From assembly GCA_963674595.2 (NCBI GenBank), contig CAXXFV010000006.1, forward strand, positions 96,001 to 160,000: a stretch of DNA of 64,000 nt, read 5' to 3'. Each line of letters begins with the position of its first letter. Position 1 is the stretch's first letter. The notes beneath the pieces were generated by a model that did no database searches, had not been told where the DNA came from, and worked only from the letters and a program-made list of their open reading frames with translations. The DNA is from a bacterium (GTDB taxonomy: Bacteria; Zhuqueibacterota; Zhuqueibacteria; Residuimicrobiales; Krinioviventaceae). Shown here piece by piece: positions 4,707-46,542 of the stretch. The position numbers and the translations under genes are program-made.

Positions 4707-4786
4707 TTGTTCGGCTCTGTTTTGTTCAGCGGTTTCGGTTTTTTTGGTTATAGAAATTGATATATCAGTCCATATCTGTCAGTGGA

Positions 4787-4815
4787 AGTGTACAAATTTT
4801 ATAAAAGCAGTGCAA
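4787..4815 (-). promoter_or_regulatory. Putative sigma70 promoter of the DUF2179 gene (TTGCAC-17-TACACT)
   Basis: Minus strand aaaaaccacTTGCAC tgcttttataaaatttg TACACT. Flank and spacer resemble the promoter in the triplicated element. Confidence 0.5.
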
Positions 4816-4965
4816 GTGGTTTTTGAAATTTTTGGTTGATTTAGGGAGGGTATGTTTGAATTTTACAAAATTGTTAGGATTGCAGGGAAATATTTTTAGC
4901 ATAAGGCTATATATGAATATTAATTATAGTTTAATGATAGGTGGTTTTAAATTGAAGTTTGATTC

Positions 4966-7009: not shown

Positions 7010-9145
7010 CTATTTGGCACATCGAAAGCCGACTGTATTGTAACAACTGCCCGGACTAAAAGCATATCGATTCTTATAATGTATATCTTCGGATTTATCC
7101 TTCCAGGAAGCGCCGCGCAGCACACGATGGTCACCACTTGAAGGGCCTGTTGGATTATTAATAGGACTCCTTTTATAATAAGACCGGCTATACCAATCAG
7201 AACACCATTCCAATACATTGCCGCTCATATCATAGAGGTCCAGCTCGTTAGGTTGTTTTTTGCCAATCGGGTGTGTTGCCCGTCTGGAATTTTTGTTATA
7301 CCATGCAACATCATTTAAGCGGTCACTGCCGCTATATTTGAAATGTTTGGATTTATTTCCGCCACCGGCGGCATATTCCCACTCTGCTTCGGTGGGTAAC
7401 CGTTTCCCTGCCCACTTTGCATATTCTTTAGCGCCAAACCATGAAACCATTGTAACCGGGTGATTTGCATAGCCCATTTCGGTTACATATTTTTTATCAT
7501 AAATTACAATTTTACTGTCTTTATTTGATATATCAAGCCAAAGAGCATTATTTGTTGCATGCCTTCTTTTAGCATTTAAAAATTCGCAAAATTGCTTATT
7601 GGTAACTTCATATTTATCTATATAAAAAGCATCCAATACTACTCTATGAACCGGGGTTTCATCGTAAAACTCTTTGCTGCCCATTAAAAATGTGCCACCA
7701 GCCACATATACCATATCGCCTAATTTTTCTGAATCATTTATATAACTAGTACGAGAACTTTTTTTTCTATGAGGGATTTTAAATTGTGCTACAACTGTTA
7801 ACACAAAATTATCATTATCGCCGGCAACAGGATACAACCATATTCTTTCTACATCGCGGAAAATATCTTGAGCATTACCTGATATGTCTGAGACAAGAAT
7901 ACTGTTTGAAACTTTTGTTTCGTGAATAAACTGCTCAATTTTAGAGTAACTTTGTTTTATCTGTTTATAAACATTAAATGCTGTTTTTGCAATATCATCA
8001 GCCGGGTTTCCTTCGGTAGTGACATTCACTGCATATTTGGCGACAAGTTCTTTTTCTTTTACATCAAGCAGTTGCTGCTCAAGTTCCTCTACTTAATCAT
8101 CAAAGTATTGCATTGCTTTATTTATACTGCTTTCCATATCATTGTCATCATAAATTACGGTTGTTAATGATTCAATGGTTTGTTTGAGATAGCTGCCTTG
8201 ATTAGCCAGTTTTTCTTCAAGCAATGCAATATCATCATCTATTTTGGCAATATTGGAAAATCCAGTTCTTATTATTTTTTGCTGTCTGCGGCTGGATGTG
8301 CTATTGGTACCGTCTATTGCTATTTTACCTAGATTTACTTCAAACTCTGTAGCTTTAATATCATCATCTGAAATGCCCTGGTTTTGTAATTTTGTTTTGT
8401 AATCATTATCGCTTAATAAATTGATAACAAGATAGTTTTCTGGTAGATCATTTGAATTGTCTTTTAATATATTTGATTTTTTTAGTGAAGCCACATTGAC
8501 CTTTATAAGATAAATAAATTTACTGCGATTGTTAATGGTTTTTGAAATATACTGTTTTTCAATAGTCATTTGACCGCTGACTTGAGAACTTATGTCATCG
8601 GTTAATAATTTTTTATTTTTAATGACAGTTAAACTTGAGATGAATACACCATTCAAGTCTTCTATTGCGATTGGCGCCAGTAACTTTTCTGCCCGGTTTG
8701 ATAATTTCCCTTTAGAGGCCCACATATCTATGTCATTTAACAATACAAGATAAAGACCTTGAAACGTTAAATTGGATAGGTCCTTTTGCATTTGTTGTTC
8801 GATGTCTTTACGACTTTGTTTTTTAATTTCTATTTGTTCCTGCATTTTTTTAATATCTATCAGTTTCAACAATTCCTGTTTGTCCATCATGACATTCGTA
8901 ATACTGTTTTGCAGGATCGCGATCTGATTTTCAACATCAATATTGTTACGTTTAATTTGAATTTTTAATTCATCAATATCGAGTGATTTGAAAATTACCT
9001 GTTCTGTTTTGATTTTCAGACTTATTGATGATTCTTTAATGTTGTTTTTTTCAAGCAACAACGAACTTGTTGGCTGGAAAATTTGAGAGTAAAGAGATGA
9101 ATGGATTAAAAACAAGAATATAATATTTAATGATTTTTTAACCAT
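7010..9145 (-). pseudogene. Secreted coiled-coil + formylglycine-generating-enzyme (SUMF1/FGE-sulfatase) domain protein, interrupted by one in-frame TAA at 8093-8095
   Basis: ORFs 8093..9145 and 7010..8029 share a frame (YFDD*VEELEQQLLDVKEKELVAKYAVNVTT). C-terminal part has GGTFLMGS, YEVTN, RLPTEAEWEYAA, DMSGNVLEW and GFRC. Confidence 0.8.
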
Positions 9146-9301
9146 TATGTTCTCCGGACGTTCAATACTGTGTTTTAGTTTAGTAATCGTTTGTTTTTTA
9201 GAATCAACTAGTTAAGCTTTATGAGAGGAACTGTGATTTTATCAAAATACAATGTGTTTAATCAACCAATAGTTTTCTTTGGGTAAAAAAAATAAAAATT
9301 G

Positions 9302-9470
9302 AACCTGACACAATCTCTTCCTCGTTTGTTCTTTGAATCCCGTATTTTAAGGTGGAAAATCAGCCAGGTTTGTTTCAGAATTATCCTTAAATGACCAACC
9401 CGTCTGAAAAACAAACTTGAACCGACAAAAGAATAATACAAATTCTATAATAACCGCGCAAGTTGTTTTT
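9302..9470 (-). repeat. Triplicated ~170-bp promoter-leader element, copy 1
   Basis: Aligns by eye with 10974-11140 and 17763-17932. TTGCGC (9456-9461)-17-TATTAT (9433-9438), internal hairpin, ends AGGAAGAGATTGTGTCAGGTT. Confidence 0.85.
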
Positions 9471-9516
9471 GGAAAAATTTTGTTAATCGGTGGATCGTAA
9501 AAGCTGACTCGGTCTG

Positions 9517-10980
9517 TTACTTGTTTTGCATTATCCCCATTTTTTCGACGAGATGCATAACATTAATTGTGCGCACGTCGCCCTTTTTTAGAGAAGCTTC
9601 TGCAGCCGCAATCCCGGCGGCATGCCCAAGCGCCATCATTGTGCGCGATAACCGACAACTGGATGCTGCTATGTGGCTAAAGCCCGCCCCTCGACCGGCT
9701 ACCAGCAGATTATCAACTCCTTTCGGAATCAGGCAGCGATAGGGTATTCCATAGCTCTCTTCCACATTGCGCAGCCCGCCGCCGCGCCCGTGAGTATCCA
9801 TTGGATGATCGGCAACCGCGATCATGTCAGGGTGCTTTTGTTTTACCAAACCTGTAACAAGATCGTGTTCCGTCAAGATGTATTCGGTAACGACCCGGTA
9901 GCTCTCCCGGATGCCAAGCATGGGAGCAAAACTATGAAATTTATACCCCTTGAATTCCGGAAATTTTGAAAGCCATTGCCAGTGTACAGTAGTCCGGGAC
10001 TGAGCTAATTCATAAGCCCTGGTGTATCCCGAATCAATCAGGGTATGACCGTCAAGTATCCCCAGAGGATTAACAATTCGATCACCGCCGGGAAGCTGAT
10101 GTACGCTGGCTACCAGCGGCCAACCGTTTGTTTTTGTCTGCGCCGGTATCTCCTGTATTTGTTCTGTGTTACGCATTGTAACTCTGTAACACAGAGATGT
10201 TGCATTTAATGTATTCCCTGGTTTATCGGCCGCATGCGGTTCATTAAACCGTTCCCGACCGTCCTCGCCAAGCATCACCTCACAACCTGCGTCACGACAC
10301 ACATACGCTCCGCCGGTACAGTCGATAAAGACGATACTGCGGATTTCCCGGGTTCCTCCATTTGCGTCTTTTACGATAATGGACTCGATTTGTCGTTTTT
10401 TCATGTTTGCGTGCAGGAAACTGGTGGAGAGCAGGACCCGGCATTTTTCAGTCGATGCGAGAAGGTACCATGCCGCTTTGTGGAAAGCAGCCGGATCAAA
10501 TACCACGGCGTGAAAGTTTTTTTCCGGTACGCCGGCACGCTGCGTGGTGCTGCTATATGTTAGTTTTGGATCCGGTATCAACAACGCACCGAACCGTGTT
10601 GGCGTCCGCACGGTAACGCCGACACTCTGAGGTAGACGGCTCAGTTGTTCATATATCTCCCGGGCGAACGAGCACCCCGGTCCCGGTTCCCAGCGGCAGA
10701 CATAGGCTCCTGTTGATGTTCCTCCCAGTTCCTCTCGTTTTTCCACCAGTATCACATCCGCTCCTGCCCGCGCTGCTGCCAGCGCCGCACCGATACCGGC
10801 ACTCCCGCCCCCAATAACACAAACGTCACAAACGATGTTCTCTTTTTTTGTCTCAGCGGCAGGCAATGCTGAGGACAGAAACAAGATGCACCAGACTAAA
10901 AGAACAAACCACCGACAGTTAATTATTATCCAGCCAAACATTCTAACAACAAAATAATCGGAATATAACCTTGAATCCAA
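9517..10980 (-). CDS. FAD-dependent oxidoreductase (PF12831-type), probably secreted; true start may be ~13 codons downstream
   Basis: DVCVIGGGSAGIGAALAAARAG, 'FIDCTG', 'GIRESYRV', 'YGIPYRCLIP..NLLVAGR' and 'MMALGHAAG'. Confidence 0.85.
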   Translation of the reverse strand: MDSRLYSDYFVVRMFGWIIINCRWFVLLVWCILFLSSALPAAETKKENIVCDVCVIGGGSAGIGAALAAARAGADVILVEKREELGGTSTGAYVCRWEPGPGCSFAREIYEQLSRLPQSVGVTVRTPTRFGALLIPDPKLTYSSTTQRAGVPEKNFHAVVFDPAAFHKAAWYLLASTEKCRVLLSTSFLHANMKKRQIESIIVKDANGGTREIRSIVFIDCTGGAYVCRDAGCEVMLGEDGRERFNEPHAADKPGNTLNATSLCYRVTMRNTEQIQEIPAQTKTNGWPLVASVHQLPGGDRIVNPLGILDGHTLIDSGYTRAYELAQSRTTVHWQWLSKFPEFKGYKFHSFAPMLGIRESYRVVTEYILTEHDLVTGLVKQKHPDMIAVADHPMDTHGRGGGLRNVEESYGIPYRCLIPKGVDNLLVAGRGAGFSHIAASSCRLSRTMMALGHAAGIAAAEASLKKGDVRTINVMHLVEKMGIMQNK

Positions 10981-11140
10981 CTCAATTTCTTCCTTATGTA
11001 TTCTACGAATCCCGTTTCATGATGGAAAATCAGCCAGATTTGTTTTATAATTACTCGTAAATGATCATCCAACCTGAAAAACAAACCTGGACCGGCAAAA
11101 ACATAATACTAATTCTTAAATAACCGCGCAAGTTGTTTTT
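10974..11140 (-). repeat. Triplicated ~170-bp promoter-leader element, copy 2
   Basis: TTGCGC (11126-11131)-17-TATTAT (11103-11108); shares GGAAAATCAGCCAG..TTGTTT, CTGAAAAACAAAC and TAACCGCGCAAGTTGTTTTT with copy 1. Confidence 0.85.
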
Positions 11141-11286
11141 ATATAATTATTTTTTCTAATCTGTTATCAAGATTAAAAATAAAACCCCCTCTGATTAAGA
11201 TGTTGGAAAAATGAGTGTTCTAATAATTAATAGAAACCGAAAAATCTATAAGCTGCTTTTAACGGATTTTAATTGTTGAATATTTT

Positions 11287-11967
11287 TTATTCTATCCGTA
11301 CCTCACTCAGTAAAACACAGGATATTTTATTTGCTTTTGTTCCAAAGGTAAAATTTTGCACCGGTCCTGAAAGCAGCGTGGATTCCTGTGCGATCACGGT
11401 CCCGCCGATATTATCATAGTTATCCGTTGCTGTAACTACCGAAGGAGAATTTGATGTCACGGTAATCCGGGTGTAATACCATGTGTCGTCTGAAATAACG
11501 TTCGACCCATCCGAGGCATAGTTTGTGCTCAAATTCAGCACCCGACAGGATGGAAACCAGTTTGTGGAATCTGAATAAAGGTCTATTGTAATGTTCATCA
11601 TTCTGCCGTCGCTGTTTGTTTTCCACTTGAGAAAAATACTGTTATCTATTGCAGAACTATTTGCAGCAAGATGAACCGCTTTGTTGGTTTGGCTATCGTT
11701 GCCGTAAATTTTTAAACCCTCTGTAACGCATTCAAATACGCCTTTTGCCGGTGTGACGTGCTCAACAACAGGTTCTGTAACGATACATTCCCAGTTTGAT
11801 AAATTCAACACCTGAGCAGGAGGGGTGGTGGAAAATGTTATACTGTCTACCTGCGAAAGATCAAAACTGTCCGAGGTTTGGTCTGTTTTATATATTGTAA
11901 GGGATTGTGAAAAAACGATATTTGACAGCAATAAAAATGTCAGCAGTGTTATTTTTTTCATTTTCAT
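11287..11967 (-). CDS. Hypothetical secreted protein with short N-terminal 'DSITFS' module and beta-rich domain
   Basis: 226 aa; signal peptide MKKITLLTFLLLSNIVFSQ. Confidence 0.75.
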   Translation of the reverse strand: MKMKKITLLTFLLLSNIVFSQSLTIYKTDQTSDSFDLSQVDSITFSTTPPAQVLNLSNWECIVTEPVVEHVTPAKGVFECVTEGLKIYGNDSQTNKAVHLAANSSAIDNSIFLKWKTNSDGRMMNITIDLYSDSTNWFPSCRVLNLSTNYASDGSNVISDDTWYYTRITVTSNSPSVVTATDNYDNIGGTVIAQESTLLSGPVQNFTFGTKANKISCVLLSEVRIE

Positions 11968-11974
11968 ATCTCTT

Positions 11975-12433
11975 TTATTTTACAAACAACATTTTTTTGG
12001 TAATAAGCGAATTTGCAAACGATACCTGATAGATGTACAAACCGGTAGCAACCGGCTGTCCGCTATCGTTATCTCCGTTCGAGGTGATGGTATATGCACC
12101 TTGTGCGGCATGTGTATTTTCAAATGATTTGACTAATTGTCCGTTAATGTTGAAAATTTTTATTTGAACGTTGCCTTTTTCCGGAATCTGGTATTCAATG
12201 GTTGTACTGGGATTAAAGGGATTGGGATAATTTTGCAGCAATTTAAATGTTTTGATAACAGTATTTATTTCTTTGTCTCCGTCCACACTTGAAAAATTCG
12301 AAAAAACCAGTTTTTGTATGTCCGCAACCGGAATGACCGTTGCATTTCCGTTTGACCATACCGTTAAATAATATGTTTGCGAATAAAGAGCGCCTGTGCA
12401 TAACAGAAAAAGTATTAATGTTATTTTTTTCAT
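11975..12433 (-). CDS. Small secreted protein: short N-terminal module + T9SS-type/FlgD-like C-terminal sorting domain
   Basis: Start moved to MKKITL (12433). 'LLQNYPNPFNPSTTIEY...IFNINGQLVK...GLYIY..KKMLFVK'. Confidence 0.8.
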   Translation of the reverse strand: MKKITLILFLLCTGALYSQTYYLTVWSNGNATVIPVADIQKLVFSNFSSVDGDKEINTVIKTFKLLQNYPNPFNPSTTIEYQIPEKGNVQIKIFNINGQLVKSFENTHAAQGAYTITSNGDNDSGQPVATGLYIYQVSFANSLITKKMLFVK

Positions 12434-12474
12434 AATAATTCCTAAATCGTTAATCAACTGCATCTGTTAAACAT

Positions 12475-13873
12475 TTAAAAAGACACATTTGTGACTTTGT
12501 TTGAAAGTGTAAAGGTTTTTTTCAATGTTCCACCCGAATAGGCCCCGCCCACATATAAACCATTTGCGTTGGTGCCGGTTGATGTGCCGCCCGTGTAAAT
12601 AGAATAGGTCGCTCCGTTTTTTAATTCCGGAGAAGAAAAAACCACATAATATACATTTCGGACCGGTTTGAATGTGACCAGGTTGTTACCGCTTGCATCC
12701 TGAATATGGAACAGAGTGGAAGAACCGAACATTGAGTTGGTTGTTGCTTTAATTGCATACTGCTCAGAACTTGTGCTGGTTGCTTCAATCATATTGCCGG
12801 AATTCGGTCCGGTAGCAATCAATAATCCACCGGATACTTTAAAAGTCCCGTTATAATCCAAAGCAACTTCAGGATTTGAAGTTGGGCCGTGGACCACAAC
12901 CGTTCCACCGGTCATCACAATGTTGCCATTGCTGTCCAGTCCGTCACCTTTTGTTGTATTGAGAGATATGTTGCCGCCATTCAGATAGAGATAGCTGACG
13001 TCGTTGGCTTCACCGCCGTTTCCTTTGGTGGCATTAAATCCGTCGTCGCTTGCAAGGATACTGACCTCGCCATTGTTTACCGTAATTTCCGGGGCTTCAA
13101 TTCCTTCAGTTGATTCTGTTATGGCAAGTATACCGTTGTTTATAGTGACTGATGTTTCCGTTCTCTATCCGGATATCATCATCGCTGCAAAGAGCGTGTT
13201 GCTCTGATCCTTTTCCGTTGATTGTTAAACTGCCGGTCCCATTAAAAACAATCGTACCTTCACTAAAAAAAGCGGCGCCCTGTTCTTCTGTTTCACCGGA
13301 ATCGTTGACGATTTCATCACTGTAGGAAGCGCCGTCTGTCAGAATATTGGTGGTACCATCGACCAACGTTACGGTTGCTTTTTTCTTTGACTGACTATTT
13401 ATTGCCGGTCCGTTTGGATTGGTTATGTTTATATTATTAAAAAACAGGTAAAACTTTTTTTCACTGTAAATTTTAAACATACCGCTAGACGTTTCCCCTG
13501 AAAGTTTATAGTTAACACCTTGTGCGTCTTCGGTCGCATTTACCGTAACATTTGCCCCATCCACATCAACCGATACGCCTTCAAAGGCCAGGGGATTGAT
13601 AACCGACACATAAGAACCGTTATAATTGATGTATACGGTGTCGGGATTATCTGTAAATGAAATACTGTCAATTTCTGCCATGGAATATTGTACGATCGTA
13701 TTTCCCATACGAAAATTTATCAGATCACCTTTATTACTAAAGTAGATCTCTTCAATATTTGACAGTGAAGCACCCAACGTCATATGATCAGACTTGTGGA
13801 GATACATTTTCCCTTGAGCAAACAAAATTGTACTAAAAAACAGGCATGCAAATAATAGAATGTTTTTTTTCAT
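12475..13873 (-). pseudogene. Cthe_2159/DUF4353-type beta-helix carbohydrate-binding protein, frameshifted at ~13150
   Basis: 13873-13151 encodes 'NGPAINSQ..LVDGTTNILTDG..GAAFFSEG..GTGSLTI..HALCSDDDIRIENGNI'. Homologous text resumes in the +1 frame from 13149 ('VTINNG..EGIEA..DDGFNA..GDGLDSNG..MTGGTVVVHGP') to the stop at 12475. Confidence 0.8.
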
Positions 13874-14191
13874 GGTATGACTATTCCACTTTAGGTGATG
13901 AATAAGTAAAACTGGTATTTACTTTAGTTGTTCAAATGATTGGTGAAAAAAAAGTTTAATTTCTTTTTAAACACTTTTATTTTTATTTTCTTGCACTTTT
14001 TTGAAAAACAAATGTTTGTAATTTTATTATGATTAATTGGTTTGGCAGGTGTATCGGATTGTAAATATGAAGTTTGTGTTATGAAAGGAGGGAGTATGAT
14101 AGGCAAAACATGTCAGAATTTTTTAGATTTTGTATATTGATATGTTGGGACCGGAAGAAGGACCCAACACATCAATTAATTTCAAACTTTG

Positions 14192-14530
14192 TTATTCTAC
14201 AATACGGACAGCTGTTCCTGAAAGCCCTGTACGTGCAACAGTGGAATTTATTTTGGAGAGTCTTACATTTATAACAGCATCAGCGCCGATTGAAGCTGCT
14301 TCCTCTTTTAAAATTTCCAAAGCAGCATCCCCATCACCGGGCTTATCAACGGCAACACTTCCGATAACGATATATTTGTAATCAAAAATATCTCCCGAAT
14401 AGACTTTAACATCTTCCGGAGAAGTCGGCTCATATGCCTCGGCCCCGTCCTGAATATAGTGGGTACGTACAGCACAACTGCAAATAAATAAAGCAAAGAC
14501 GACCATAACCTGTAGAATTGATTTTTTCAT
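14192..14530 (-). CDS. YbjQ-like (heavy-metal-binding fold) lipoprotein
   Basis: Lipoprotein-like signal peptide with Cys; 'LKEEAASIGADAVINVRL..GTAVRI'. Confidence 0.7.
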   Translation of the reverse strand: MKKSILQVMVVFALFICSCAVRTHYIQDGAEAYEPTSPEDVKVYSGDIFDYKYIVIGSVAVDKPGDGDAALEILKEEAASIGADAVINVRLSKINSTVARTGLSGTAVRIVE

Positions 14531-14542
14531 TAGAGACCTCCT

Positions 14543-14890
14543 TTATTGCAGTTTAACTGCTGTACCATATGCCTTTATTGCGGATTGCCAGTATCCAGAG
14601 TCAATTTCCAGTCTGAGATTGATAATAGCATCCGCACCTAATTGTGCAGCCTGTTTTTTCAAATGCCCTACAGCCGTTTCGGCATTTTCACCTGCATCCG
14701 CATCTGCAACGACCTCTCCGATTACTACATAATCGGCATCGATTTTTGACGTAGAATATACTTTTACGTCAGATGCCGGAACCGGTTCAAAGGAAGAATC
14801 CGGATAATCATCAGTATTTATATGAGCAACTGAAGAACAACCCGCTACAATTAGTACGGCAAACAATCCAGTGACAAGTAATTTGAACAT
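14543..14890 (-). CDS. YbjQ-like lipoprotein, tandem paralog
   Basis: Lipobox VAGC; 'LKKQAAQLGADAIINLRL..YGTAVKL'; AAGGAGG RBS. Confidence 0.75.
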   Translation of the reverse strand: MFKLLVTGLFAVLIVAGCSSVAHINTDDYPDSSFEPVPASDVKVYSTSKIDADYVVIGEVVADADAGENAETAVGHLKKQAAQLGADAIINLRLEIDSGYWQSAIKAYGTAVKLQ

Positions 14891-15096
14891 AGACAGCCTC
14901 CTTATATAGTAATGGGATTAAAAAAGTGAATGATTTTAATTTTACTTTCCCCTAAATCACCAATCAAGGTTGACCCTGTGGATAAATTTAGTATTTTTCC
15001 AATATAAAATTATTAAAACATAAATACAATAAAATAAACAAGTTTTTTTAGTTTTTTTTATTCTCAATAGCTTTAAGTGTTTACCTGATCGCTCAT

Positions 15097-17442
15097 TTAA
15101 ATCCTTGGTTCATACATTTCTTTAGAAAACGACATACGGCAGCACAATCCATTTCCGTTGATGAACTTTATGTTGCCTTCCAGTTGATCTCTAACCAAAT
15201 CAATGACTGTTTGAAGTCCTAGATGAATATCTTTTTCAAAATCAAAATCTTTTGGTAATCCTATCCCGTTATCCGCAATTTCCAGCACGAGAACATTTTT
15301 TGTATTTATATGCATCGATATCTGAATTTTACCACGCCTTTTATCAGGGAAAGCATGTTTAATTGAGTTGGTCAACAATTCATTAATAACAAGCCCGATT
15401 GGAATGGCCGTATCTATCAAAACATCTGCGCCCTTTATGTTAATTTCTATTGTTAAATTTCTCATAATTTCTAAAAAGCATTGTTTTATTAATGAAACCA
15501 GACTCTTGATAAAGTCTTCCAAATTAATATGGGATAAATCTTTGGATTCGTATAGTTTTTGATGGACGAGCGACATACATTGAATTTTGTTCTCAATATC
15601 TGTAAATGCGCTTTCAAGTTCTTTGTTTTTAATCGTCCGTGATTTTAGACGAAGCATAGAGGAAATAATTTGCATGTTGTTTTTAGTTCGATGATAAAGT
15701 TCTCGAAGCAGTATTTCTTTTTCACTCAAGTTTTTTTTGATTTCTTCTTCTGCGCGTTTCCGTTCGGTGATATCCCGAAAAATACCTTGCAGAACCTTTC
15801 TGCCGCCAATTTCCAGTGCTGTTGCGCTGATTCGAACCGGAATAACCTGACCGGACTGGCCAATTACCACTGATTCGATGTCAGAGACCTGACCGATATT
15901 AACATGGTTGATAAATTTGTCTGTATATTGATCTGTATCAGGGTGTAAAATGATACGGTTTTTTCCTTTAATCTCACTCCGGGGCAAACCCAATAGTTTT
16001 TCGGCCATCTTGTTTGCATCAATAATAATCTCAGTTTCAACGTCGGCAATAAAGATGGCATCTCCGGCGTTTTCAAATAGAGCACGATATTTTTCCTCGT
16101 TATCACGTAACGCTTGTTCGATTTTGTTTCGTTCCGTAATATCTCTCATTATACCTACACTAAAAATTTCTTCATTATGCTTATATGTAGAAACTCGCAC
16201 ATCCATGTCAAAAACAGTACCATCTTTTGTTAAACCCTTTGTTTCATAAAGTGTCGGTGTCGGTTTTCCCATGGAACGGTTAATCGCAAGGCTACGAATC
16301 CATGCTCGTTCCGACGGTGCGATTTGGTCAATAAGAGGGCTCCCGATCAATTCCGAATCGTCACGAAAACCAAACAATTTCAGGTAAGCTTGATTGACCA
16401 TATAGGTTCTACCTGATTTGCTTACACCTATGGCATAACCGGCTTCATCAAACAACGCACGAAGTTTTGTTTCGTTCTCTTTTAATCTGTCTTCATTGTG
16501 TTTAAAATCTGTTATATCTACATTTGTACCAATTATACGGACAGGCTCGCCATTATTGTCCAAAAATGTACGGGAAACTGCTTTTATAAAACGGATTGAA
16601 CCATCGGGAAGGATAACGCGGAATTCCGGTGCATATTCTTTTTCGCCCCGAAGAGCTGCCTGGATTTCACCCTTTATTCTCGTTTTATCTTCAGGATGAA
16701 GAATATCTAACCATGCCTTGTAGGCAACTTTAGAATCTTTTTGACTGATACCATATAGACGATACATACTTTCGTCCCAGATCAAGTGGTTGTTGTTGAT
16801 ATTCCAATCCCAGATGCCGATATTGCTTGCAGCGGTGGCTAGCTTCAGGCGTTCGATCGTTTTATCTAGTTCCTGAGTCCGTTTTTTGACCCTTGACTCC
16901 AGAGTTTTGTTAATCCTCTCAAGTTCTTTTTCAACACGTTTTCGTTTTTCAATTTCAAATAGCAGCTTTAACTGGTCTTCGATAATTGTTTTGAAAGACC
17001 AGAGCAGATCTTTGTATACAGGATTATCCTTTTGGGACCGAATCGGTTTTGAATCCAAAACGCAGATCGTACCAAAAGTTTCACCGGTCGGCCAATGGAG
17101 TGGAATGCCCAGATATGAAATCATGTTAAGAGGGACATCTGGATTGTTTTTCCATTTTTCATGTTGAAGTGCGTCATCCACATAAAGCATACTGTCTTCA
17201 TTCATAACTGTTTCACAATAAAGCTTGCCGTGCAGGTGTTCCGAAGCGCCTACTTTGTAGGGGTTACCTTTTGTTTCACTGCTTACAAGGACTTCGATTT
17301 GCTTTTGGCTCACCTTCATTATAAGACCAGCCGGGACCTGGAATATGTCTGCCAAAGAATTGACTATATTCTGCCACTTTTGGACAGTATCATCCGGTAC
17401 TATCCTTTCCAGAACATTGAATTTAATTTTATACCCATCCAT
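15097..17442 (-). CDS. GAF + 3xPAS sensor histidine kinase (HisKA_2 type)
   Basis: GAF ('SYLGIPL..GTICVLD'), PAS/PAC repeats ending DIT(D/E)(F/R), 'ELYHRTKNNMQIISS', 'NELLTNSIKHAF' and 'DNGIG'. Start set at ATG 17442 with GAGGGA RBS (ORF track start is 17520). Confidence 0.9.
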   Translation of the reverse strand: MDGYKIKFNVLERIVPDDTVQKWQNIVNSLADIFQVPAGLIMKVSQKQIEVLVSSETKGNPYKVGASEHLHGKLYCETVMNEDSMLYVDDALQHEKWKNNPDVPLNMISYLGIPLHWPTGETFGTICVLDSKPIRSQKDNPVYKDLLWSFKTIIEDQLKLLFEIEKRKRVEKELERINKTLESRVKKRTQELDKTIERLKLATAASNIGIWDWNINNNHLIWDESMYRLYGISQKDSKVAYKAWLDILHPEDKTRIKGEIQAALRGEKEYAPEFRVILPDGSIRFIKAVSRTFLDNNGEPVRIIGTNVDITDFKHNEDRLKENETKLRALFDEAGYAIGVSKSGRTYMVNQAYLKLFGFRDDSELIGSPLIDQIAPSERAWIRSLAINRSMGKPTPTLYETKGLTKDGTVFDMDVRVSTYKHNEEIFSVGIMRDITERNKIEQALRDNEEKYRALFENAGDAIFIADVETEIIIDANKMAEKLLGLPRSEIKGKNRIILHPDTDQYTDKFINHVNIGQVSDIESVVIGQSGQVIPVRISATALEIGGRKVLQGIFRDITERKRAEEEIKKNLSEKEILLRELYHRTKNNMQIISSMLRLKSRTIKNKELESAFTDIENKIQCMSLVHQKLYESKDLSHINLEDFIKSLVSLIKQCFLEIMRNLTIEINIKGADVLIDTAIPIGLVINELLTNSIKHAFPDKRRGKIQISMHINTKNVLVLEIADNGIGLPKDFDFEKDIHLGLQTVIDLVRDQLEGNIKFINGNGLCCRMSFSKEMYEPRI

Positions 17443-17762
17443 TGTTCTTTTTCCCTCGTATACATTTATCAGATACTTTAACGTTACTGTTTTATCCGGA
17501 TAGTTTAGGTAATTAAACAAGATAATTATGGTATAGCTGTTTGGATATGCGTGTAATGCATCAGGAGAACTAGTCCAAACAGCACCGTTATATTAACTTG
17601 TATCTATGGATATTATCTCCATTCTTTTAAACTAAGAAGATAAATATTTTATCTGGATCCGATTTTACAAAAAGTATCCAGAGTGTAAAGTGTTAAACTT
17701 CAGTTTAGTGATTTTTTTAGATCTAATAATTTTGTCGGCAGGACAACAGGAATATGATTTTA

Positions 17763-17932
17763 AATCCGACACAATCTCTTCCTTGCTTGACCAGTAAACC
17801 CGTGATTATAAATAATAAATCGTTAAGGTCGCTCCATTAACACCCTTGAACGCCCAATTCTACTGAAAAACAAACCTTTACGATTGATATACATATTATA
17901 CAAATTAAATAATACCAGCGCAAGGGGTTTTT
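17763..17932 (-). repeat. Triplicated ~170-bp promoter-leader element, copy 3 (most diverged)
   Basis: TTGCGC (17918-17923)-17-TATAAT (17895-17900); shares GACACAATCTCTTCCT and CTGAAAAACAAAC with copy 1. Confidence 0.8.
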
Positions 17933-17962
17933 GGGAAAATTCACTAATAAATTGAAGAATCA

Positions 17963-17993
17963 TTCATACAGGGATTTACAATCCCTGTATGAA
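17963..17993 (-). terminator. Perfect 14-bp stem hairpin downstream of the sialidase-like gene
   Basis: TTCATACAGGGATT-tac-AATCCCTGTATGAA; U-tract is weak. Confidence 0.55.
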
Positions 17994-18021: not shown

Positions 18022-19089
18022 TTAAAACTCGGGTGGGTTGCCGATAATGGCATATTCATCGAACACGCTATGCATAATGGTGGTCCTGTTATTGGTTGTG
18101 TAAACAATATGTATTTTGCCGTCGCTTGTTTGAATGGCATAGGGATAGGCAAAGGTATTGTCGCCGCCGGCAATATTTCGTTGATAGGGGTAGCTTTTAT
18201 CGCCGTCCACTGAAACCGCCACGGTCAGCGGTGTGCGATCATTCATATTGTTATTATAAACAAGCAGCAAATGGCCGTTGTGCAGTTTGATAAAATCGAC
18301 AGCGGAGTTGGGATTAGGGAATTTGGTCTCTACTGCATCCGTCCAGGTATAGCCGCCGTCACGGGACTCGGAACGCAGCGTGTATCCGTGGTCGGTCGGT
18401 AAAAAATCACCGCCACGACGGATATAGGCAACGAGGTAATCATCCGAAAGCTGGACCACCTGGGCCTGAAGGTTGCCCATTAATGACTTGATTCGGTTGG
18501 TTTCCGTCCATTTTTTGGTTTTGGGATTATAATGCATAAAATAAGAACTGGTTGTTGCCGCCGTCATCTCACGGTCTTGTCCGCTTTCATAGTACATGGG
18601 CAGGAGATAATCGCCATTGTTCAGCACGATTGGCTGTCCCCGCACCATGGTGCCCTCTTGAAAATTGAGCATAAAAGAGTCTGACCAGGTTTGTGCACCG
18701 TCATCGGAAATTTTGACTTTGACGCGGGCGTTGGACCAGGTGTCTCCATAACGATTCACATAAAACAGCCACACACGGCCATCCGGGGCCTGCCACACCA
18801 CGGGATTGCCTTCGCCGCGGTCCGGTGTGTTGGCGATGACAACCGGTTCTGACCATTGCACCTCACCGGTTTTAAGACGGGCGCCGTAAACAGCCGTGTC
18901 GTCGCCGTATTCACCGGAACCGCCATAGTATGCGAGATAAAGGTCCCCATTAGCGAGCTGGGTAATAGATGCCGGGTGTTTGTATTGCCCGGGATGCTCC
19001 GGCCCAAAAACACGATAGGTCTCAATGTTATAACTTTGAGCAAATGCCAAAACACTGAACTGCAGGAAAAAGACAAGGAAATATTTCAT
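18022..19089 (-). CDS. BNR-repeat / sialidase-like (BNR_2) secreted protein
   Basis: Asp-boxes SDDGAQTW, SRDGGYTW and SVDGDKSY; 'PNPNSAVD', 'RTPL' and 'AYPYAIQ..DGKIHIVYT'. Confidence 0.85.
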   Translation of the reverse strand: MKYFLVFFLQFSVLAFAQSYNIETYRVFGPEHPGQYKHPASITQLANGDLYLAYYGGSGEYGDDTAVYGARLKTGEVQWSEPVVIANTPDRGEGNPVVWQAPDGRVWLFYVNRYGDTWSNARVKVKISDDGAQTWSDSFMLNFQEGTMVRGQPIVLNNGDYLLPMYYESGQDREMTAATTSSYFMHYNPKTKKWTETNRIKSLMGNLQAQVVQLSDDYLVAYIRRGGDFLPTDHGYTLRSESRDGGYTWTDAVETKFPNPNSAVDFIKLHNGHLLLVYNNNMNDRTPLTVAVSVDGDKSYPYQRNIAGGDNTFAYPYAIQTSDGKIHIVYTTNNRTTIMHSVFDEYAIIGNPPEF

Positions 19090-19238
19090 GGTCAGTTTCT
19101 CCGTTTTAGGGAATTGTTTTATTCTGTTTGAGGCTGTGCGGGATTATTTTCAATTAAAAAATTGTGTTATAATCTTTAGAATAATTAACAGAAGGGAGGT
19201 GCTGAATTATTTCAGGTTTTGGTGAGGGTTGTTGGTTG
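19055..19238 (-). repeat. ~184-bp direct repeat, copy A (upstream region + first ~12 codons of the sialidase-like gene)
   Basis: Colinear, high similarity with 23374-23556 (e.g. GTCAGTTTCTCCGTTTTA, ATTCTGTTTGAGGCTGTG, GGGATTATTTTCAATTAAAA, GGTGCTGAATTATTTCA). Confidence 0.9.
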
Positions 19239-23373: not shown

Positions 23374-23556
23374 CTGAATTATAGGAAAAAGACAAGGATA
23401 TATTTCATAGTCAGTTTCTCCGTTTTAAGGGAATTATTATATTCTGTTTGAGGCTGTGTGGGATTATTTTCAATTAAAAGATTGTGTTAATAACTTTTAA
23501 AATTAATAAAAAGGCGGTGCTGAATTATTTCAAGTTTTGGTGTGGTTGGTTGGTTG
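23374..23556 (-). repeat. ~183-bp direct repeat, copy B (contains a truncated copy of the sialidase start, MKYILVFFL*)
   Basis: ATG at 23408 followed by AAA TAT ATC CTT GTC TTT TTC CTA TAA, versus MKYFLVFFLQ in copy A. Confidence 0.9.
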
Positions 23557-27492: not shown

Positions 27493-27661
27493 TATTTACT
27501 TTTTTCTCATTTGTGATAATAATACCCGTGTTTTAAGTTTTGGCCATTCTGAATGCAAATCTAGAATAATGTCAAATAAATAGTACGAACTATGAGAAAA
27601 CATAGCAAGAGATTTTTGTAAAATAGTTGTGCAAAAGGAGGGAGGCCCCCATTGACAATTT

Positions 27662-29666
27662 TTATTTTAAAAGTAAACATTTTTTAGTAAACGTGTAATC
27701 AGAACTGGTGAAATGGATCAGATACAATCCGGACTGAACAGATTCACCCGCATTGTCCATTCCATCCCATTGAATTTTATGCGAACCGGCGTTAAAATGA
27801 TTTTCCGCCAGGCTGCGGATTTCCTGACCCAGCACATTATAAATGCTGATGTGCACCAGGTTGTCTGCTGGAATTTTAAATACAATAAAAGTTGATGAAT
27901 TGAATGGATTGGGATAGTTTTGTTCCAGTTCGCAGGAGGAGGATAATGATATTGGAGAACTGTTTGAAACGTCCGTTGTTATGGGTATAATATCTCCTTC
28001 TATTAAAACCGGTTCATATCCCAATTGTATTGTGAATTCGCCGTTCACTCCGGTAATCGTTTTTTCTTGTGGAACCGTGTTTAACGTGTCTGTAATAATA
28101 TGTATTAATTTTAAAGAATCAATATTATCTAAATTTTTAAATGTGACATATTCTCCGGTGGGATTGTTTCTATAGTCAAAGTCTGGCGGCGGTTCTCCGG
28201 TTTCACTCCATAATACGGAAAGGGGACCGGAAAGACGCTGGAATTTATAAAACCGGGTTCGCGGATCATCGCTTATTTTAAATTTTTCAACAGTTGTAAA
28301 ATCGCCCAGCATTTCAACAAGCAGTTTATAGGTATAGTAGCTTGGTTTTTCCGGATACCCTTGAGACCGCACGCCAATAAAATTGACCCAGCCGATACTA
28401 CCCAACAAATAGTTTCGAAATTCAGGAACATCATTCGTGCCGGATAAACATGCCCGTTCGGCACCTTCACCAAATGCCGTAACAAAAGATTTGACGACCT
28501 CTCTGGCATGGCGCGCATAATACCAGTTGGTTATTTCAGAATTTTCGTTGATCAATTCTGTTAATAACATGGCATGGGGATCATTACCCGTAAACAATGA
28601 ATTTGGAAAATCTCCATATATTTTTTTTGCCCAGTCGCTGCTTGAAGGCTGGTAGGCAGGTGCATTGAACTGGCAAAAACCGGGTATAGTCAGTCCAAAA
28701 TTATACCCTACACTGCTGATCGTCGTCCACATATCGTCTACATATATGGGTTTATCTCCTGCATGGTCATGAATAAAAGCAAACTCCTGGTCGATAATAC
28801 GCCAACCGAAATGAGGATGCCAACCGATATAATCACACTCGATGCCGTCTTCGTCGTTGCCAAAACTATCCAGCATTTTTTTAAGACTGTCCCAACCGGC
28901 CGTATAGGTGCTGCTGCGATAGTTTTCGCCATTCAATCGTTTTTTGGACTAAACTGTTTGGGTCCTGAGGATCAAATTCAGGATAATCGGGGAAATCTGC
29001 AAACAGATCAAACAAAATTGCCCCGGCAGACACAACCTTTGTATTGCCCGTGGGGTCTGCTTCTTGAATAGCCGTATAGGTAATCCGGTGAAGATGTAAA
29101 AGATTATCGATGGTGTCATACCAGTAGGGGCCCCACTCGGCGTCGCCTTTGCCGGAACCGCTGTACCGGATTTCACCCGAATATACATAAAACCGGATTG
29201 GATGGGTCAATCCTTCCATGTCATTGATTCCGTCGCCATCGTATCTTTCCACAACCGCTTTTATAAAATCTATCCAGTATTGTTCAAACGCAGAATCCGG
29301 GGCTGCTTCACCCACCTGAGGAATATCTTTATCGGGAAACGCCCATTGCGCATCGCAATTTAAATAGGGTGTAAGGGTAAAACCGTGTTTTTGAAACACC
29401 GTTACAATATCGTCCATCTTTTTAAAATTAATGGGATCAGAAGCGCCGGTTTGCATGTCGTTCCAGCTTGCCACACCATTTACGTTAATTCCGCCAGGTG
29501 TCCCCAGTTTTTCAAGTTTAGTGAGAAGGTGCTCTATGTGCGGATCATACCATGATAATCCGGCCTCATTCCATTCCAGCCCAAATCGCCAACTGACCTG
29601 AGCTTTGGCTGCCGGTAAAGCGATGAGCATTAAAGCCGTAAAAAGTAAAAATGCAGATTTTTTCAT
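27662..29666 (-). pseudogene. Secreted putative GH-A-clan hydrolase with T9SS-type C-terminal domain, split by a +1 frameshift in an A6 run (28940-28945)
   Basis: Removing one A joins 28881..29666 to 27662..28936 (LVQK|RLNGENY). 'VVERYDGDG..DM' N-terminal motif; C-terminal 'QNYPNPFN'. Confidence 0.75.
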
Positions 29667-38032: not shown

Positions 38033-40081
38033 ATGAAAAGATATTTAGCCCTTTTCATCCTGATTTTTTCAAACATGGCCTTTTCCGGTGGTGATCCGGC
38101 ATTTAACAATGTTTGGAAAATAATTCCAACAATGAGTTCTGATGATACCCGCTATAATCGTAATCTTGAAATGGATATTCGTGTAAATGGAGATGAGGTT
38201 ACAATTATTAGCGGTAGCGGCCGAAGATATGCAGATACTTTGACTGTTGTAACAGATGGAAAATTTATTAATAAACCAATTACACAGATGTTTAATGCTA
38301 CAACCATTTACCAGGGATTACATCCGGTCCGTGATGGCGGGTATAAAATATCAGCAGCCTGGCAAAATGAAGGCCGAACACTGTTAATTAAAAAACATTA
38401 TGATGTGGAAGTGGCCCAGGGAAAAACAACGCTTAAAGAATCACATGTTTTTGAGTTGAATAAAAACCATGAATTTTTAAAATATGAGATCAACCGTGAG
38501 TCCCGAACCGATAATCCAATGATCAGTTATACGTTTAAAGTAAAAGACAGCATGAACGCTTTTGTTACTTTTTTAGACAATGACTGGGACGTACAAGGTG
38601 GTTTGGACAGACAAGCCATGATGATTGGATTGGAAGGTCTGGTTAACCGTAATGCCCCTAATTTTTATTGTGTTTATCCGGAAGAGTGGCAATTTACTTA
38701 TACAAAACGGTTATACGAGTGGTATGGCGAAAAGCGCGGATATACTTTTACTACAATCGAAACTCCCAAACAAGCTGTTGAAACTTTTCGTGATTATATT
38801 AAAGGATACGTCGTTTGGGATAAAAACGTTCGCACGTCACTCATCGTTGCTTTTACGATAGCCGGTTTGAATGACGCTGTTGTCGCCAGTGAAGATCAAA
38901 TTCCGATGCTGGATTCGCTTGGCTTTTCAATGGTTAAGGATTTGAGAGGTCTTTTTACGGATAAAAATGATGCGGAAATTTATCAGTGGGCAAAGGATAA
39001 ATATTGGGACCAGTGCAGCCGAAAATACATTATCTGGTTGGGCGGGCATTCCGGCAAAGTATTGCTTCCGGGTGTTGCTGACTGGGGTGTTGCACAACGT
39101 GCTTTTATGCAAGACCTTTCAACAGACCCCAAAGATACGGATGAGTATAATTTAGCAAAACAACTTTTAGGTGATATGGACAGTGACGCACTTGTTATGG
39201 GCTGGCATTCTTATGGAAAAGACAGCGAGGGACAGCATGTTACATTGTGTTCCGGTTTTGGTTTACCTGTTGAAGGCCTTCACAGTCTGCCAAATGTCAG
39301 TTTTGAACATCAGATTGGTTTTTCAGAGGGATTTGAATTTAAAAACAATCATAATATTGAACCTGGTAAAAAGTATATACCTGAAAACAAAGTTTATATA
39401 GCCTGTGTTCAGACAGATGGTATCGGTATCGGCGCGTGGTTGAAACCAGGCCGTGGCGAAATCCCTTATGCCTGGGAAACTTTGATGAATTACAGTTGGT
39501 TAATGCCCAGTTTACTGGAATTTTTCTACAGTACTTCAACACCCAATGATTATTTTATCGGCTGTCTATCCGGCCCTGGTTATATGTACCCCAAATCTGT
39601 TCCGCCGGATAAATTACCCGGTCTTTTGAAAAAGGCAAATGGTTTGATGGAAAAACTGGATTTACGTGTTTTTGATATTATGGACCATTCCAGAGGCGTT
39701 CCAAGATATGAATATGCCAACCTGACAAAGTCAGTTGTAGATGCCTATTATGAAGCCATGCCGAATGCTATCGGGTTCGTAAATGGCTACCGACCCGCCA
39801 ATACTTATGATATTCGAAATGGTGTTCCCATGATTTCATTTGAATATTATTTATCTCCAACTGTGTCGGAGGAAAAAGCAGCCGCTGATTTGATCGAATT
39901 AGGCAGTTTGAATAAAAAACGTCCTTATTTTCTGTTGTTGCATATTCGTGAAACAAGTGCTGTTGCTCGTGTAAAATCCATCTTGAACAGACTTCCCGAA
40001 GATTATGAACTGGTCCCTCTTGATATTTTTCTAAAAATGGCTGGTGAAAAACCCGGATTTGAAAAACGTTATATCGAATAA
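38033..40081 (+). CDS. GxGYxYP-family putative glycoside hydrolase, secreted
   Basis: 'LSGPGYMYP' signature; 'GLEGLVNR..P', 'GYVVWD' and 'VMGWH'. AGGAGG RBS before ATG 38033. Confidence 0.85.
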   Translation: MKRYLALFILIFSNMAFSGGDPAFNNVWKIIPTMSSDDTRYNRNLEMDIRVNGDEVTIISGSGRRYADTLTVVTDGKFINKPITQMFNATTIYQGLHPVRDGGYKISAAWQNEGRTLLIKKHYDVEVAQGKTTLKESHVFELNKNHEFLKYEINRESRTDNPMISYTFKVKDSMNAFVTFLDNDWDVQGGLDRQAMMIGLEGLVNRNAPNFYCVYPEEWQFTYTKRLYEWYGEKRGYTFTTIETPKQAVETFRDYIKGYVVWDKNVRTSLIVAFTIAGLNDAVVASEDQIPMLDSLGFSMVKDLRGLFTDKNDAEIYQWAKDKYWDQCSRKYIIWLGGHSGKVLLPGVADWGVAQRAFMQDLSTDPKDTDEYNLAKQLLGDMDSDALVMGWHSYGKDSEGQHVTLCSGFGLPVEGLHSLPNVSFEHQIGFSEGFEFKNNHNIEPGKKYIPENKVYIACVQTDGIGIGAWLKPGRGEIPYAWETLMNYSWLMPSLLEFFYSTSTPNDYFIGCLSGPGYMYPKSVPPDKLPGLLKKANGLMEKLDLRVFDIMDHSRGVPRYEYANLTKSVVDAYYEAMPNAIGFVNGYRPANTYDIRNGVPMISFEYYLSPTVSEEKAAADLIELGSLNKKRPYFLLLHIRETSAVARVKSILNRLPEDYELVPLDIFLKMAGEKPGFEKRYIE

Positions 40082-40082
40082 T

Positions 40083-40119
40083 AAAAAAAGACCGGAAAAA
40101 TTTTCCGGTCTTTTTTTTT
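40083..40119. terminator. Bidirectional intrinsic terminator between convergent genes
   Basis: AAAAAAAGACCGGAAAA-A-TTTTCCGGTCTTTTTTTTT. Confidence 0.85.
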
Positions 40120-40203
40120 AATTTGGTAGGAAGCATCAAAATATTTAATAAAAGCAGAGTTTTATAAATCATCAATGAGATCGATTTTTCGATCTCATTT
40201 TTT

Positions 40204-42953: not shown

Positions 42954-43145
42954 GAGATTGCCTCTTTTATTTAAGAAAACGTGATGAATCTCATTCAAAT
43001 ATGAGAAAATATATTATTACTTTAGTTTTATATATGAAACTGAATGTGTGTCTGAGGAAATTGAGTTATTTTAAGTAGATTAATAATAATTTAGAATGTT
43101 TAAATCCATATTATCCCACAATCCTTACCACTACCACCGTTGGAC

Positions 43146-43226: not shown

Positions 43227-43299
43227 ATTTTATGTGATTTAGCTCACATGTTTATAATTTTTGTTATATGTCTGAGATCGTTAAAAATGGAAAATGTTC

Positions 43300-43328
43300 T
43301 TGACTACTTTTTCATTTATGTTTATATT
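43300..43328 (+). promoter_or_regulatory. sigma70 promoter (TTGACT-17-TATATT) upstream of the rib operon leader
   Basis: TTGACT actttttcatttatgtt TATATT. Confidence 0.6.
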
Positions 43329-43397
43329 GACTCGTTAATTGATTGTCAACAATGTTTTACAATTATGTAACAGTCAATAATTCAGTATAAATATTTT

Positions 43398-43432
43398 AGC
43401 CCTGAAAATTGCTTTCAGGGCTGTTTTGTGTT
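43398..43432 (+). terminator. Terminator-like hairpin upstream of ribD
   Basis: AGCCCTGAAA-attgc-TTTCAGGGCT followed by GTTTTGTGTT. Confidence 0.65.
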
Positions 43433-43487
43433 AAACTTGCTTTCATATTACAAAATGTCTGGTATAATATACTAAGGTGTAATTCCT

Positions 43488-44606: not shown

Positions 44607-44611
44607 GCAGC

Positions 44612-45253
44612 ATGTTTACCGGTCTTGTCGAAGAAGTTGGGCAAATTAACAGCATTACAAAAAGTGGTTCAGGTGCACAGTTTTCAATATCCGCACATTC
44701 AATATTGCAGGATATTAAAAAAGGTGACAGTATAGCTGTTGATGGAATCTGCCTGACAGTAGTGGATTATACCTCGAATCGTTTTACCGTTGATGCTGTT
44801 GGCGAAACCCTAAACAAGACAACACTTTCCACAATTAAAATTAAGGACCATGTCAATTTAGAACGTGCCATGAAAGCAGAAAGCCGCTTTGGCGGTCATT
44901 TTGTACAAGGTCATGTTGATGGTATTGGAAAAGTTTCCAGTTTACAGAAGAGATATCCCGGTTACTGGCTGGATATCTCCGCTGCCCCGGAAATTGTTGA
45001 TCTGTGTGTTAAGAAAGGTTCCATAACAATCAACGGAATCAGTTTAACTATTGCCGACCTGAAAGAACAGCAAATATCCATTGCTGTTATACCCCATACA
45101 TTTAGTGAAACAAGTTTGAAATATTTATCCAAAGGCAGTTCTGTTAATATTGAGGCAGATGTTTTAGGGAAATATGTACAGAAATTTTTACATCCTTATA
45201 ATAATAAAAATAATGATATTAGTATTGAAAAATTAAATAGTTTAGGTTTTTAA
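44612..45253 (+). CDS. ribE: Riboflavin synthase (alpha chain)
   Basis: MFTGLVEE, 'GDSIAVDGICLTV' and 'VNLERA..GGHFVQGHVDG'. Confidence 0.96.
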   Translation: MFTGLVEEVGQINSITKSGSGAQFSISAHSILQDIKKGDSIAVDGICLTVVDYTSNRFTVDAVGETLNKTTLSTIKIKDHVNLERAMKAESRFGGHFVQGHVDGIGKVSSLQKRYPGYWLDISAAPEIVDLCVKKGSITINGISLTIADLKEQQISIAVIPHTFSETSLKYLSKGSSVNIEADVLGKYVQKFLHPYNNKNNDISIEKLNSLGF

Positions 45254-45273
45254 GAATTTAGTGAGAAAAAAAG

Positions 45274-46533: not shown

Positions 46534-46542
46534 GTGTAGGAT

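Follow-up and report, generated by a model that had tools for sequence, protein, structure and literature searches.

We analysed a 64,000-nt stretch of a bacterial genome (GenBank assembly GCA_963674595.2, contig CAXXFV010000006.1, positions 96,001 to 160,000; Zhuqueibacterota in the GTDB lineage), referred to below as the window, in which a repeated element lies upstream of three unrelated genes. The element combines a predicted promoter with a leader that opens in a hairpin and ends in a conserved tail. Three homologous stretches of ~175 bp lie colinearly on the minus strand inside 8.6 kb (nhmmer: 9474-9292, 11143-10961, and 17936-17750), within 32 kb of genes that all share one strand and have varied functions. 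The copies, the parts of their RNAs as placed from sequence and predicted fold, and the genes downstream are listed here.

9299..9474, minus strand: copy 1, with an A-tract, a -35 at 9461-9456, a -10 at 9438-9433, and a predicted transcription start (+1) at ~9426
9426-9359, 9416-9404, and 9322-9299, minus strand: P1 hairpin, 13-mer, and tail of the copy 1 RNA
10960..11143, minus strand: copy 2, with a -35 at 11131, a -10 at 11108, and a predicted +1 at ~11096
11096-11029, 11086-11074, and 10994-10971, minus strand: P1 hairpin, 13-mer, and tail of the copy 2 RNA
17749..17936, minus strand: copy 3, the most diverged, with a -35 at 17923, a -10 at 17900, and a predicted +1 at ~17888
17885-17818, 17875-17863, and 17783-17760, minus strand: P1 hairpin, 13-mer, and tail of the copy 3 RNA
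7010..9145, minus strand: gene with an FGE-sulfatase domain, next after copy 1, of 711 codons and interrupted by one in-frame TAA after codon 350
9517..10980, minus strand: gene for an FAD (flavin adenine dinucleotide)-dependent oxidoreductase (PF12831), 51% GC, the sole gene fused in frame to a tail, with an alternative ATG at 10941
15097..17520, minus strand: GAF/PAS histidine kinase gene downstream of copy 3, likely starting at ATG 17442 with its own GAGGG

The repeat family is real. Self-BLAST of the window paired copies 1 and 2 at E=1.5e-36 and copies 1 and 3 at E=2.5e-8, and a pattern built from the two best copy motifs matched three times in the window and in none of 100 shuffles; with nhmmer, these searches bear out a preliminary description, made from the letters alone, that had reported three colinear minus-strand copies. 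Over 175 aligned columns, pairwise identity is 80% (copies 1 and 2, which also align at 80% over 140 nt), 62% (copies 1 and 3), and 58% (copies 2 and 3), and it drops to 30-50% in the 30 columns upstream of the copies. Ninety of the 175 columns are invariant, and these concentrate in the promoter, in the 13-nt GTTTGTTTTTCAG that is identical in all three copies, and in the tail (longest run 13, p=0.01; variance across alignment windows, p=0.002). An unfiltered covariance-model search of the 64-kb window returned the three copies only and no fourth full copy, the next match being at E=0.12. A candidate at 27544-27621 (minus strand), which lies before a GH43 gene and shows the promoter shape of the copies together with ACGGG, was not accepted as a copy, since it reached only E=0.07 and was unsupported by the covariance model.

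Each copy carries TTGCGC, a 17-bp spacer, and TATTAT or TATAAT behind an A-tract, as had been described, located at 9461, 11131, and 17923. Nine sites in the window, all of them intergenic, fit a shape derived from the copies (A-tract, CTTG, 19-20 nt, TAnnnT): the three copies and six others, including sites upstream of ribD and recN. Non-coding DNA makes up 14.6% of the window, and its A+T richness favours matches to a promoter shape. We read this shape as the ordinary strong promoter of the organism, predicted to be of the sigma70 type. A generic promoter scan was uninformative, with 65 sites found and 65.2 expected in the window, and the three copy promoters were absent among the 60 of its 65 sites that were listed. 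At 4783-4834 (minus strand), upstream of a DUF5698/DUF2179 gene, there is a promoter-only likeness to copy 1 (80% over 46 bp, spacer bases included; BLAST E=0.002) without leader or tail; this could represent either a fourth copy cut short or an ordinary promoter that has this shape.

Downstream of the predicted start, the consensus fold from RNAalifold has an energy of -18.3 kcal/mol on the minus strand versus -5.1 kcal/mol on the plus strand; the stems quoted in the preliminary description are present, and their G-U pairs indeed favour the minus strand. An 18-pair 5' stem with a 4-pair inner stem has 92.4% of 66 cells paired, a level reached by 6 of 500 shuffles, with 32-56% of cells paired in slid controls. 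The arms of P1 also pair better than shuffled arms, which did as well in 0, 0, and 6 of 1000 shuffles for copies 1, 2, and 3. The outer P1 stem of copy 3 differs in sequence and still pairs, with A-to-G changes opposite U. The earlier statement that this stem varies and yet pairs holds for the pairing but does not extend to significant covariation among three sequences: two-sided changes affect 3 of 22 pairs, all separating copy 3 from the other two, and this count, which varies with the gapping of the alignment, was reached by 52 of 500 shuffles. As a whole, the RNA is no more stable than its shuffles (z of +1.10, +0.23, and -0.04), and its first 70-80 nt give z values of only +0.6 to -2.3. 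No terminator is common to the three copies, and pairing of the P1 loop with the tail as a pseudoknot, inspected by eye, was rejected, as it would comprise four wobble-rich pairs of the sort expected by chance. Taken together, the folding results moderately support one conserved 5' hairpin, predicted on the favoured minus strand and with some erosion.

A variable partner opposite an invariant 5' arm is also what one would look for in a switch that responds to a ligand or a protein, such as a riboswitch or a translational attenuator. Its U-rich invariant arm would pair by turns within P1 and with sequence ahead of the ribosome-binding site (RBS), and the centroid or minimum-free-energy structures of copies 1 and 3 do adopt the alternative pairing. 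The alternative duplex, however, gave p values of 0.081, 0.904, and 0.258 against shuffles (marginal in copy 1 only), and 1, 32, and 10 of 40 control gene starts paired as well. The pairing registers differ among the copies, the downstream genes share no pathway, and no Rfam family corresponds to the element, all of which make a switch improbable. The Rfam search, a check proposed in the preliminary description, gave no match in the window at the gathering score; the best sub-threshold scores were 24.2 bits against a cut-off of 52 (outside the element) and 21.7 against 60.

The tail, 18 of whose 24 bases are invariant across the copies, had been described as resembling an RBS and start. This holds for copy 2, where AGGAAG stands 8 nt before TTG 10980, which shares the frame of the FAD oxidoreductase gene, but not for copies 1 and 3, in which the tail frame opens with GTG and stops after 17 and 35 unrelated codons, respectively. 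Behind the copy 1 tail, a T-rich tract gives way to unrelated DNA, and the next ATG (9145), 154 bp away, has its own GGAG; behind copy 3 the kinase open reading frame (ORF) starts 240 bp (TTG 17520) to 318 bp (ATG 17442) away. Similarity does not end abruptly at the tail, as had been stated: over the 12 nt beyond it, copies 2 and 3 still agree at 8 (p about 0.004), and copy 1 differs from both at its 3' junction. The three downstream genes (FGE-domain, FAD oxidoreductase, and PAS kinase) are unrelated as reported, with no self-BLAST match between coding regions at E<0.01. What follows copy 1 is, more exactly, the 350-codon first half of the 711-codon FGE-domain gene, and this N-terminal half (ORF 8093-9145) had no match in Pfam or NCBIfam and no usable hit in ESM Atlas. 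A start at TTG 10980 places 56 residues before the GxG motif of the FAD protein, where the homologue median is 37 (10-90%: 32-45; measured in the 108 of 120 homologues with a measurable N-terminus), a length that fits an added junction segment; a relative 97% identical has the same N-terminus. The gene may start either there or at ATG 10941.

These data bear on whether the copies are merely neutral relics of an old tandem gene family, their gene bodies deleted and no specific function left. Broken genes in the cluster (the in-frame stop in the FGE gene and two frameshifted genes) would suit decay of this kind, as would the one-sided nature of the P1 differences between copies 1 and 2. On the other hand, the -35, the 17-bp spacer, the -10, the 13-mer, and the tail survive ~40% divergence as clustered blocks, the copy 2 start is in frame with an intact gene, and the 97% identical relative keeps that N-terminus. 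We therefore regard neutral decay as very improbable.

A second, independent repeat family lies in the same cluster.

19055..19238, minus strand: copy at an intact gene, comprising the upstream region and the first 11-12 codons of a BNR-repeat gene
23374..23556, minus strand: orphan copy, 86% identical over 185 bp, with the same leader and MKYILVFFL followed by a stop

The orphan copy is followed by ~235 bp of unrelated DNA and then by an AraC gene. This pair shows that duplicates consisting of a leader plus the first codons arise in the cluster with no special RNA involved, and it suggests that a general process is at work locally. Mainly because this second family has the same relic anatomy, we prefer to view the element as the promoter, hairpin leader, and start region of one gene of the lineage, reused as an expression module in an accessory cluster, a reading to which we attach about even confidence. 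From the preliminary description, it is the notion of an expression module before unrelated genes that fares best, through the promoter shape, the copy 2 fusion, and the second family. The accompanying idea that the module was copied with each inserted gene block is plausible, although the 3' junctions differ and no mobilising enzyme was found in the window.

While the sequence family, the promoter shape, the hairpin potential of the minus strand, and the frame relations are established, we infer the copying route, the source gene, and the functions as follows. The front end of the source gene, which would be located outside the window, would comprise a sigma70-type promoter, a ~115-nt leader opening with the long hairpin, and a ribosome-binding and start region. 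Copies would have been made by duplication or by integration of DNA with a homologous leader, and new junctions a few codons past the start would amount to promoter capture. At copy 2 the original gene body would have been replaced, so that this copy would drive the FAD gene; at copies 1 and 3 the body would have been lost, leaving at most a supply of transcription through a long leader. The 5'-terminal hairpin would most likely stabilise the mRNA, and recognition by a host factor or by the ribosome may be what has preserved the invariant 13-mer and the tail.

Several observations weigh against this reading of a reused front end. First, a runs test on the clustering of invariant columns was not significant (p=0.086). 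Second, arms from different copies can pair better than arms of the same copy: the 5' arm of copy 2 with the 3' arm of copy 1 gives -24.9 kcal/mol versus -19.7 for its own, and the 5' arm of copy 3 with that same 3' arm gives -17.5 versus -15.4, a pattern that looks like erosion rather than co-adaptation, whereas the 3' arm of copy 3 has its own 5' arm as best partner. Third, a gene is fused to the tail in only one of three copies, and even that fusion may be incidental because ATG 10941 leaves 43 residues before GxG, a normal N-terminal length. Finally, the tail is better conserved than an RBS requires, and this conservation does not extend to the protein level. Of 36 gene starts here, only 1 has AGGAAG in front, versus 10 with GGAG, and so the tail may be more than an RBS.

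Conservation of the tail as DNA rather than protein would also suit an attachment site. Islands would enter a host gene at its 5' end and supply a substitute promoter and 5' end, or circular cassettes of promoter plus gene would be added by a recombinase; accretion in tandem would then leave one copy per event. All copies share one orientation over 8.6 kb of a same-strand array of mixed GC content, and the tail contains a weak TTG-N9-YAA dyad. Both repeat families also end at or near RTTYAR on the minus strand (9299 GTTCAA, 10971 ATTCAA, 17760 ATTTAA, 19055 GTTCAG, and 23374 ATTCAG); this was noticed post hoc and could be chance or a shared junction preference. A precedent exists in dusA-associated islands, which are reported to replace the 5' end and promoter of a gene (PMC4482086). 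The likeness is that insertion leaves foreign DNA flanked by two versions of a promoter with the 5' end of a gene, but unlike at dusA islands, no integrase, restored host gene, or common junction was seen in the window. A Pfam scan of 45 of the 62 listed ORFs (the other 17 overlap scanned ones) identified no transposase or integrase; the preliminary description, too, had seen no transposase. No conserved host gene stands behind the last copy, though the same-strand array continues beyond base 1 of the window. The 3' junction of copy 1 differs from those of copies 2 and 3, and as many as 3 of the 7 bases in the putative overlap vary from copy to copy. In an integron attC site, a hairpin is closed by the core pair RYYYAAC ... 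GTTRRRY. RYYYAAC occurs in none of the three copies and GTTRRRY only inside copy 2, and attC was thus rejected. Overall, we consider an attachment site unlikely.

Reuse of a front end places the element beside a described phenomenon. Putative mobile promoters (Nijveen, Matus-Garcia, and van Passel) are homologous promoters before non-paralogous genes of one genome, with 80% or more identity across at least 50 nt in the interval from -150 to -50 relative to the start codon; most pairs share 92%, many have no Rfam match, and over 4,000 families have been reported, with the mechanism of movement unknown (PMC3575422). Our element likewise consists of homologous upstream regions before non-paralogous genes. 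Copies 1 and 2 reach the stated identity, while copy 3 at 62% and 58% does not, and only copy 2 lies at the stated position, the distance from the end of the copy to the next gene being 154 bp for copy 1 and 240-318 bp for copy 3. In contrast to putative mobile promoters, the element includes the -10, the hairpin leader, and the start region. On the favoured reading it works like a putative mobile promoter, formally displaced in two copies and too diverged in one. As homologous promoters before unrelated genes are already on record (PMC3575422), the element is not an undescribed kind of system, for which the preliminary description had named it the best candidate in the window.

Two further precedents bear on the favoured reading of a reused front end. 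Promoter capture through activation by tandem duplication is reported in PMC11111574 and also cited in PMC3575422. It resembles our case in the shared orientation, the close spacing, a foreign gene behind a resident promoter, and the lack of need for a transposase, but here the duplicated gene bodies are gone and the copies are 20-42% diverged; therefore, the events would be old, or the copies would come from relatives. Stabilising 5' stem-loops are found in the E. coli ompA leader. They are also reported to stabilise the recA and vacA mRNAs (PMC7509114). As in those leaders, a long hairpin lies within a few bases of the predicted +1 and is followed by a linker and an RBS region; unlike our element, leaders of the recA, vacA, and ompA type are single-copy.

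Repeated intergenic DNA that bears a promoter could also be the end of an insertion sequence (IS) or a transposable element of the miniature inverted-repeat kind (MITE) with an outward promoter, for example Correia- or ISEcp1-like DNA, an IS200/IS605 right end, or an IS110 circle junction. In copies 1 and 2 the tail closes with TCAA, as does the annotated IS609 end. The longest terminal inverted word is 6 nt, however, in line with the earlier report that no terminal inverted repeats are visible, and the flanking direct repeats are 4-6 nt and A/T-rich, which rejects a MITE. In the IS200/IS605 family, a subterminal DNA hairpin lies just before the TCAA or TCAC of the right end, and one is present just before the annotated IS609 end. 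The copies have only 0 to -0.6 kcal/mol at this position, versus -4.1 to -8.4 kcal/mol at 10 of 11 tnpB loci, a comparison that favours the controls in that the best candidate end was picked at each (one of the 11 loci had no candidate end); the background in the window has a median of -1.35 (n=898). An IS200/IS605 right end was thus not supported.

The order of promoter, structured RNA, and gene is reminiscent of IS110, in which, as reported in PMC11208160, a sigma70 promoter is followed by a structured bridge RNA of about 177 nt with a 5' stem-loop and three stems. Our element also has a sigma70-type promoter followed by a structured RNA with a 5' stem-loop, but it is 128 nt long rather than about 177 and has one clear stem rather than three. 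A bridge RNA has two internal loops that match the target and the donor, the donor match falling at the -35/-10 junction. Words shared between our RNA and that junction are 5-6 nt in copies 1 and 2 and 9 nt in copy 3 only, hence not conserved, and no recombinase was found in the window; a bridge RNA was not supported either. With no transposase among the Pfam-scanned ORFs and no blastn match to plasmids with copy 1, an IS or MITE is largely refuted within the window and, as an origin of the element, highly improbable.

A stand-alone non-coding RNA gene of ~128 nt, possibly the guide scaffold of a TnpB-derived or dead Cas12f protein encoded elsewhere, is a different proposal. In two of three copies no gene begins at the tail, and the distance from the predicted +1 to the tail end (126-129 nt) approaches the 116-nt scaffold of ISDra2 TnpB, for which PMC10097598 gives G, U, C, and A at -6, -5, -3, and -2; the copy 1 tail has these bases. 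Loci for dCas12f with tandem similar guide RNAs exist (PMC13472631). The resemblance to an omega-RNA thus comprises a length of ~120-130 nt, a TCAA end in two of three copies, and variable sequence after it. Unlike omega-RNAs and dCas12f guides, the element has no subterminal hairpin, and in the 64-kb window it has no effector gene, model match, or guide target. We found no tnpA, tnpB, or derived effector in the window (Pfam scan; best TnpB tblastn E=0.5), and the element models matched none of the 11 tnpB loci. In copy 1 the would-be guide is poly-T, for those of copies 2 and 3 the 64 kb offers no convincing target, and neither a conserved terminator nor an Rfam match is present. A stand-alone RNA gene, whether or not it is a guide, is, in our judgement, distinctly unlikely. 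Repeats of the SIB/Ibs type I toxin-antitoxin kind encode a conserved short hydrophobic peptide. Such a peptide was rejected for our element, as synonymous changes outnumbered replacements in no block of the six frames.

Relatives of the element were sought more widely. A pattern scan of GTDB genomes gave 107 matches, with the source genome not among them; as it requires both motifs to be exact, diverged relatives could be missed. These matches were rejected as relatives, since the best E value was 0.083 with a profile hidden Markov model and 0.44 with the covariance model (over 100 loci; for the remaining 7, run with 11 control loci, the best was 0.85). A blastn search of phages with copy 3 gave 92 records, none covering 80%, and among the best 20 of them the matches are 33 nt long and fall on the promoter stretch. 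Of the proposed undescribed cis-regulatory or small RNA, the one conserved hairpin stands, but the claim is weakly supported: no conserved switch, terminator, significant covariation (three sequences), or relative was found. We found no earlier description of the element in the literature, which is weak evidence, since some of the searches turned up no paper containing the term KSB1. That term refers to the host: the best non-self matches of RecN from the window are only 55-56% identical, and the named, lineage-bearing ones all belong to candidate division KSB1, so the host is KSB1-related without a close sequenced relative in the set. The GC content of the cluster ranges from 0.25 to 0.51 (23 genes), versus 0.34-0.42 for 13 core genes.

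If the reused front end is the correct reading, the locus would be a clear natural case of promoter and leader reuse in an uncultured phylum, with two independent families in one cluster documenting the way in which foreign genes come to be expressed. The leader would then be a candidate for an uncatalogued RNA. Such reuse would be useful rather than surprising, given that more than 4,000 such families are known (PMC3575422). Much more would be at stake if the tail were a recombination site or the RNA a guide, which would point to an integron-like or RNA-guided system without a described counterpart. We think it distinctly unlikely that the element is the unit site of an undescribed KSB1-type cassette system, in which every accessory gene block would come with a promoter, a conserved structured RNA, and a tail recombination core and would be added in tandem by an enzyme whose gene lies outside the window, or that the copies are stand-alone guide RNA genes for an RNA-guided protein.

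Some neighbouring features complete the description. A perfect 14-bp palindrome with a 3-nt loop (17963..17993, no strand assigned), presumably REP-like, follows the BNR gene 27 bp upstream of copy 3; it is single-copy in the window and is probably a terminator insulating copy 3. Within the second family, the orphan copy begins directly after the stop of a YARHG gene, and past its junction another frame reads MQGADYTEPLHYQH and a stop, perhaps the end of a deleted gene. The opposite strand of this family has an extended -10 (TGTGTTATAAT) and GGAGGTG at 19158-19200 (plus strand), with no long ORF behind them and both degraded in the orphan copy.

Three genes on the minus strand are split by frameshifts: a Cthe_2159-domain gene (12475-13873), a FlgD/Por-tail gene (27662-29666), and the class II ribonucleotide reductase gene (40204-42998). 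Because the last is a core gene, some of the broken genes may be assembly errors. Six unassigned ORFs were not named by NCBIfam above its cut-offs. The riboflavin operon (43280-47010, plus strand; ribD, synthase, ribBA, and ribH) has a 190-nt leader, in which no FMN (flavin mononucleotide) riboswitch was detected at the Rfam gathering score. Between the converging GxGYxYP and ribonucleotide reductase genes lies a 28-bp inverted repeat (40072-40128), probably a bidirectional terminator.

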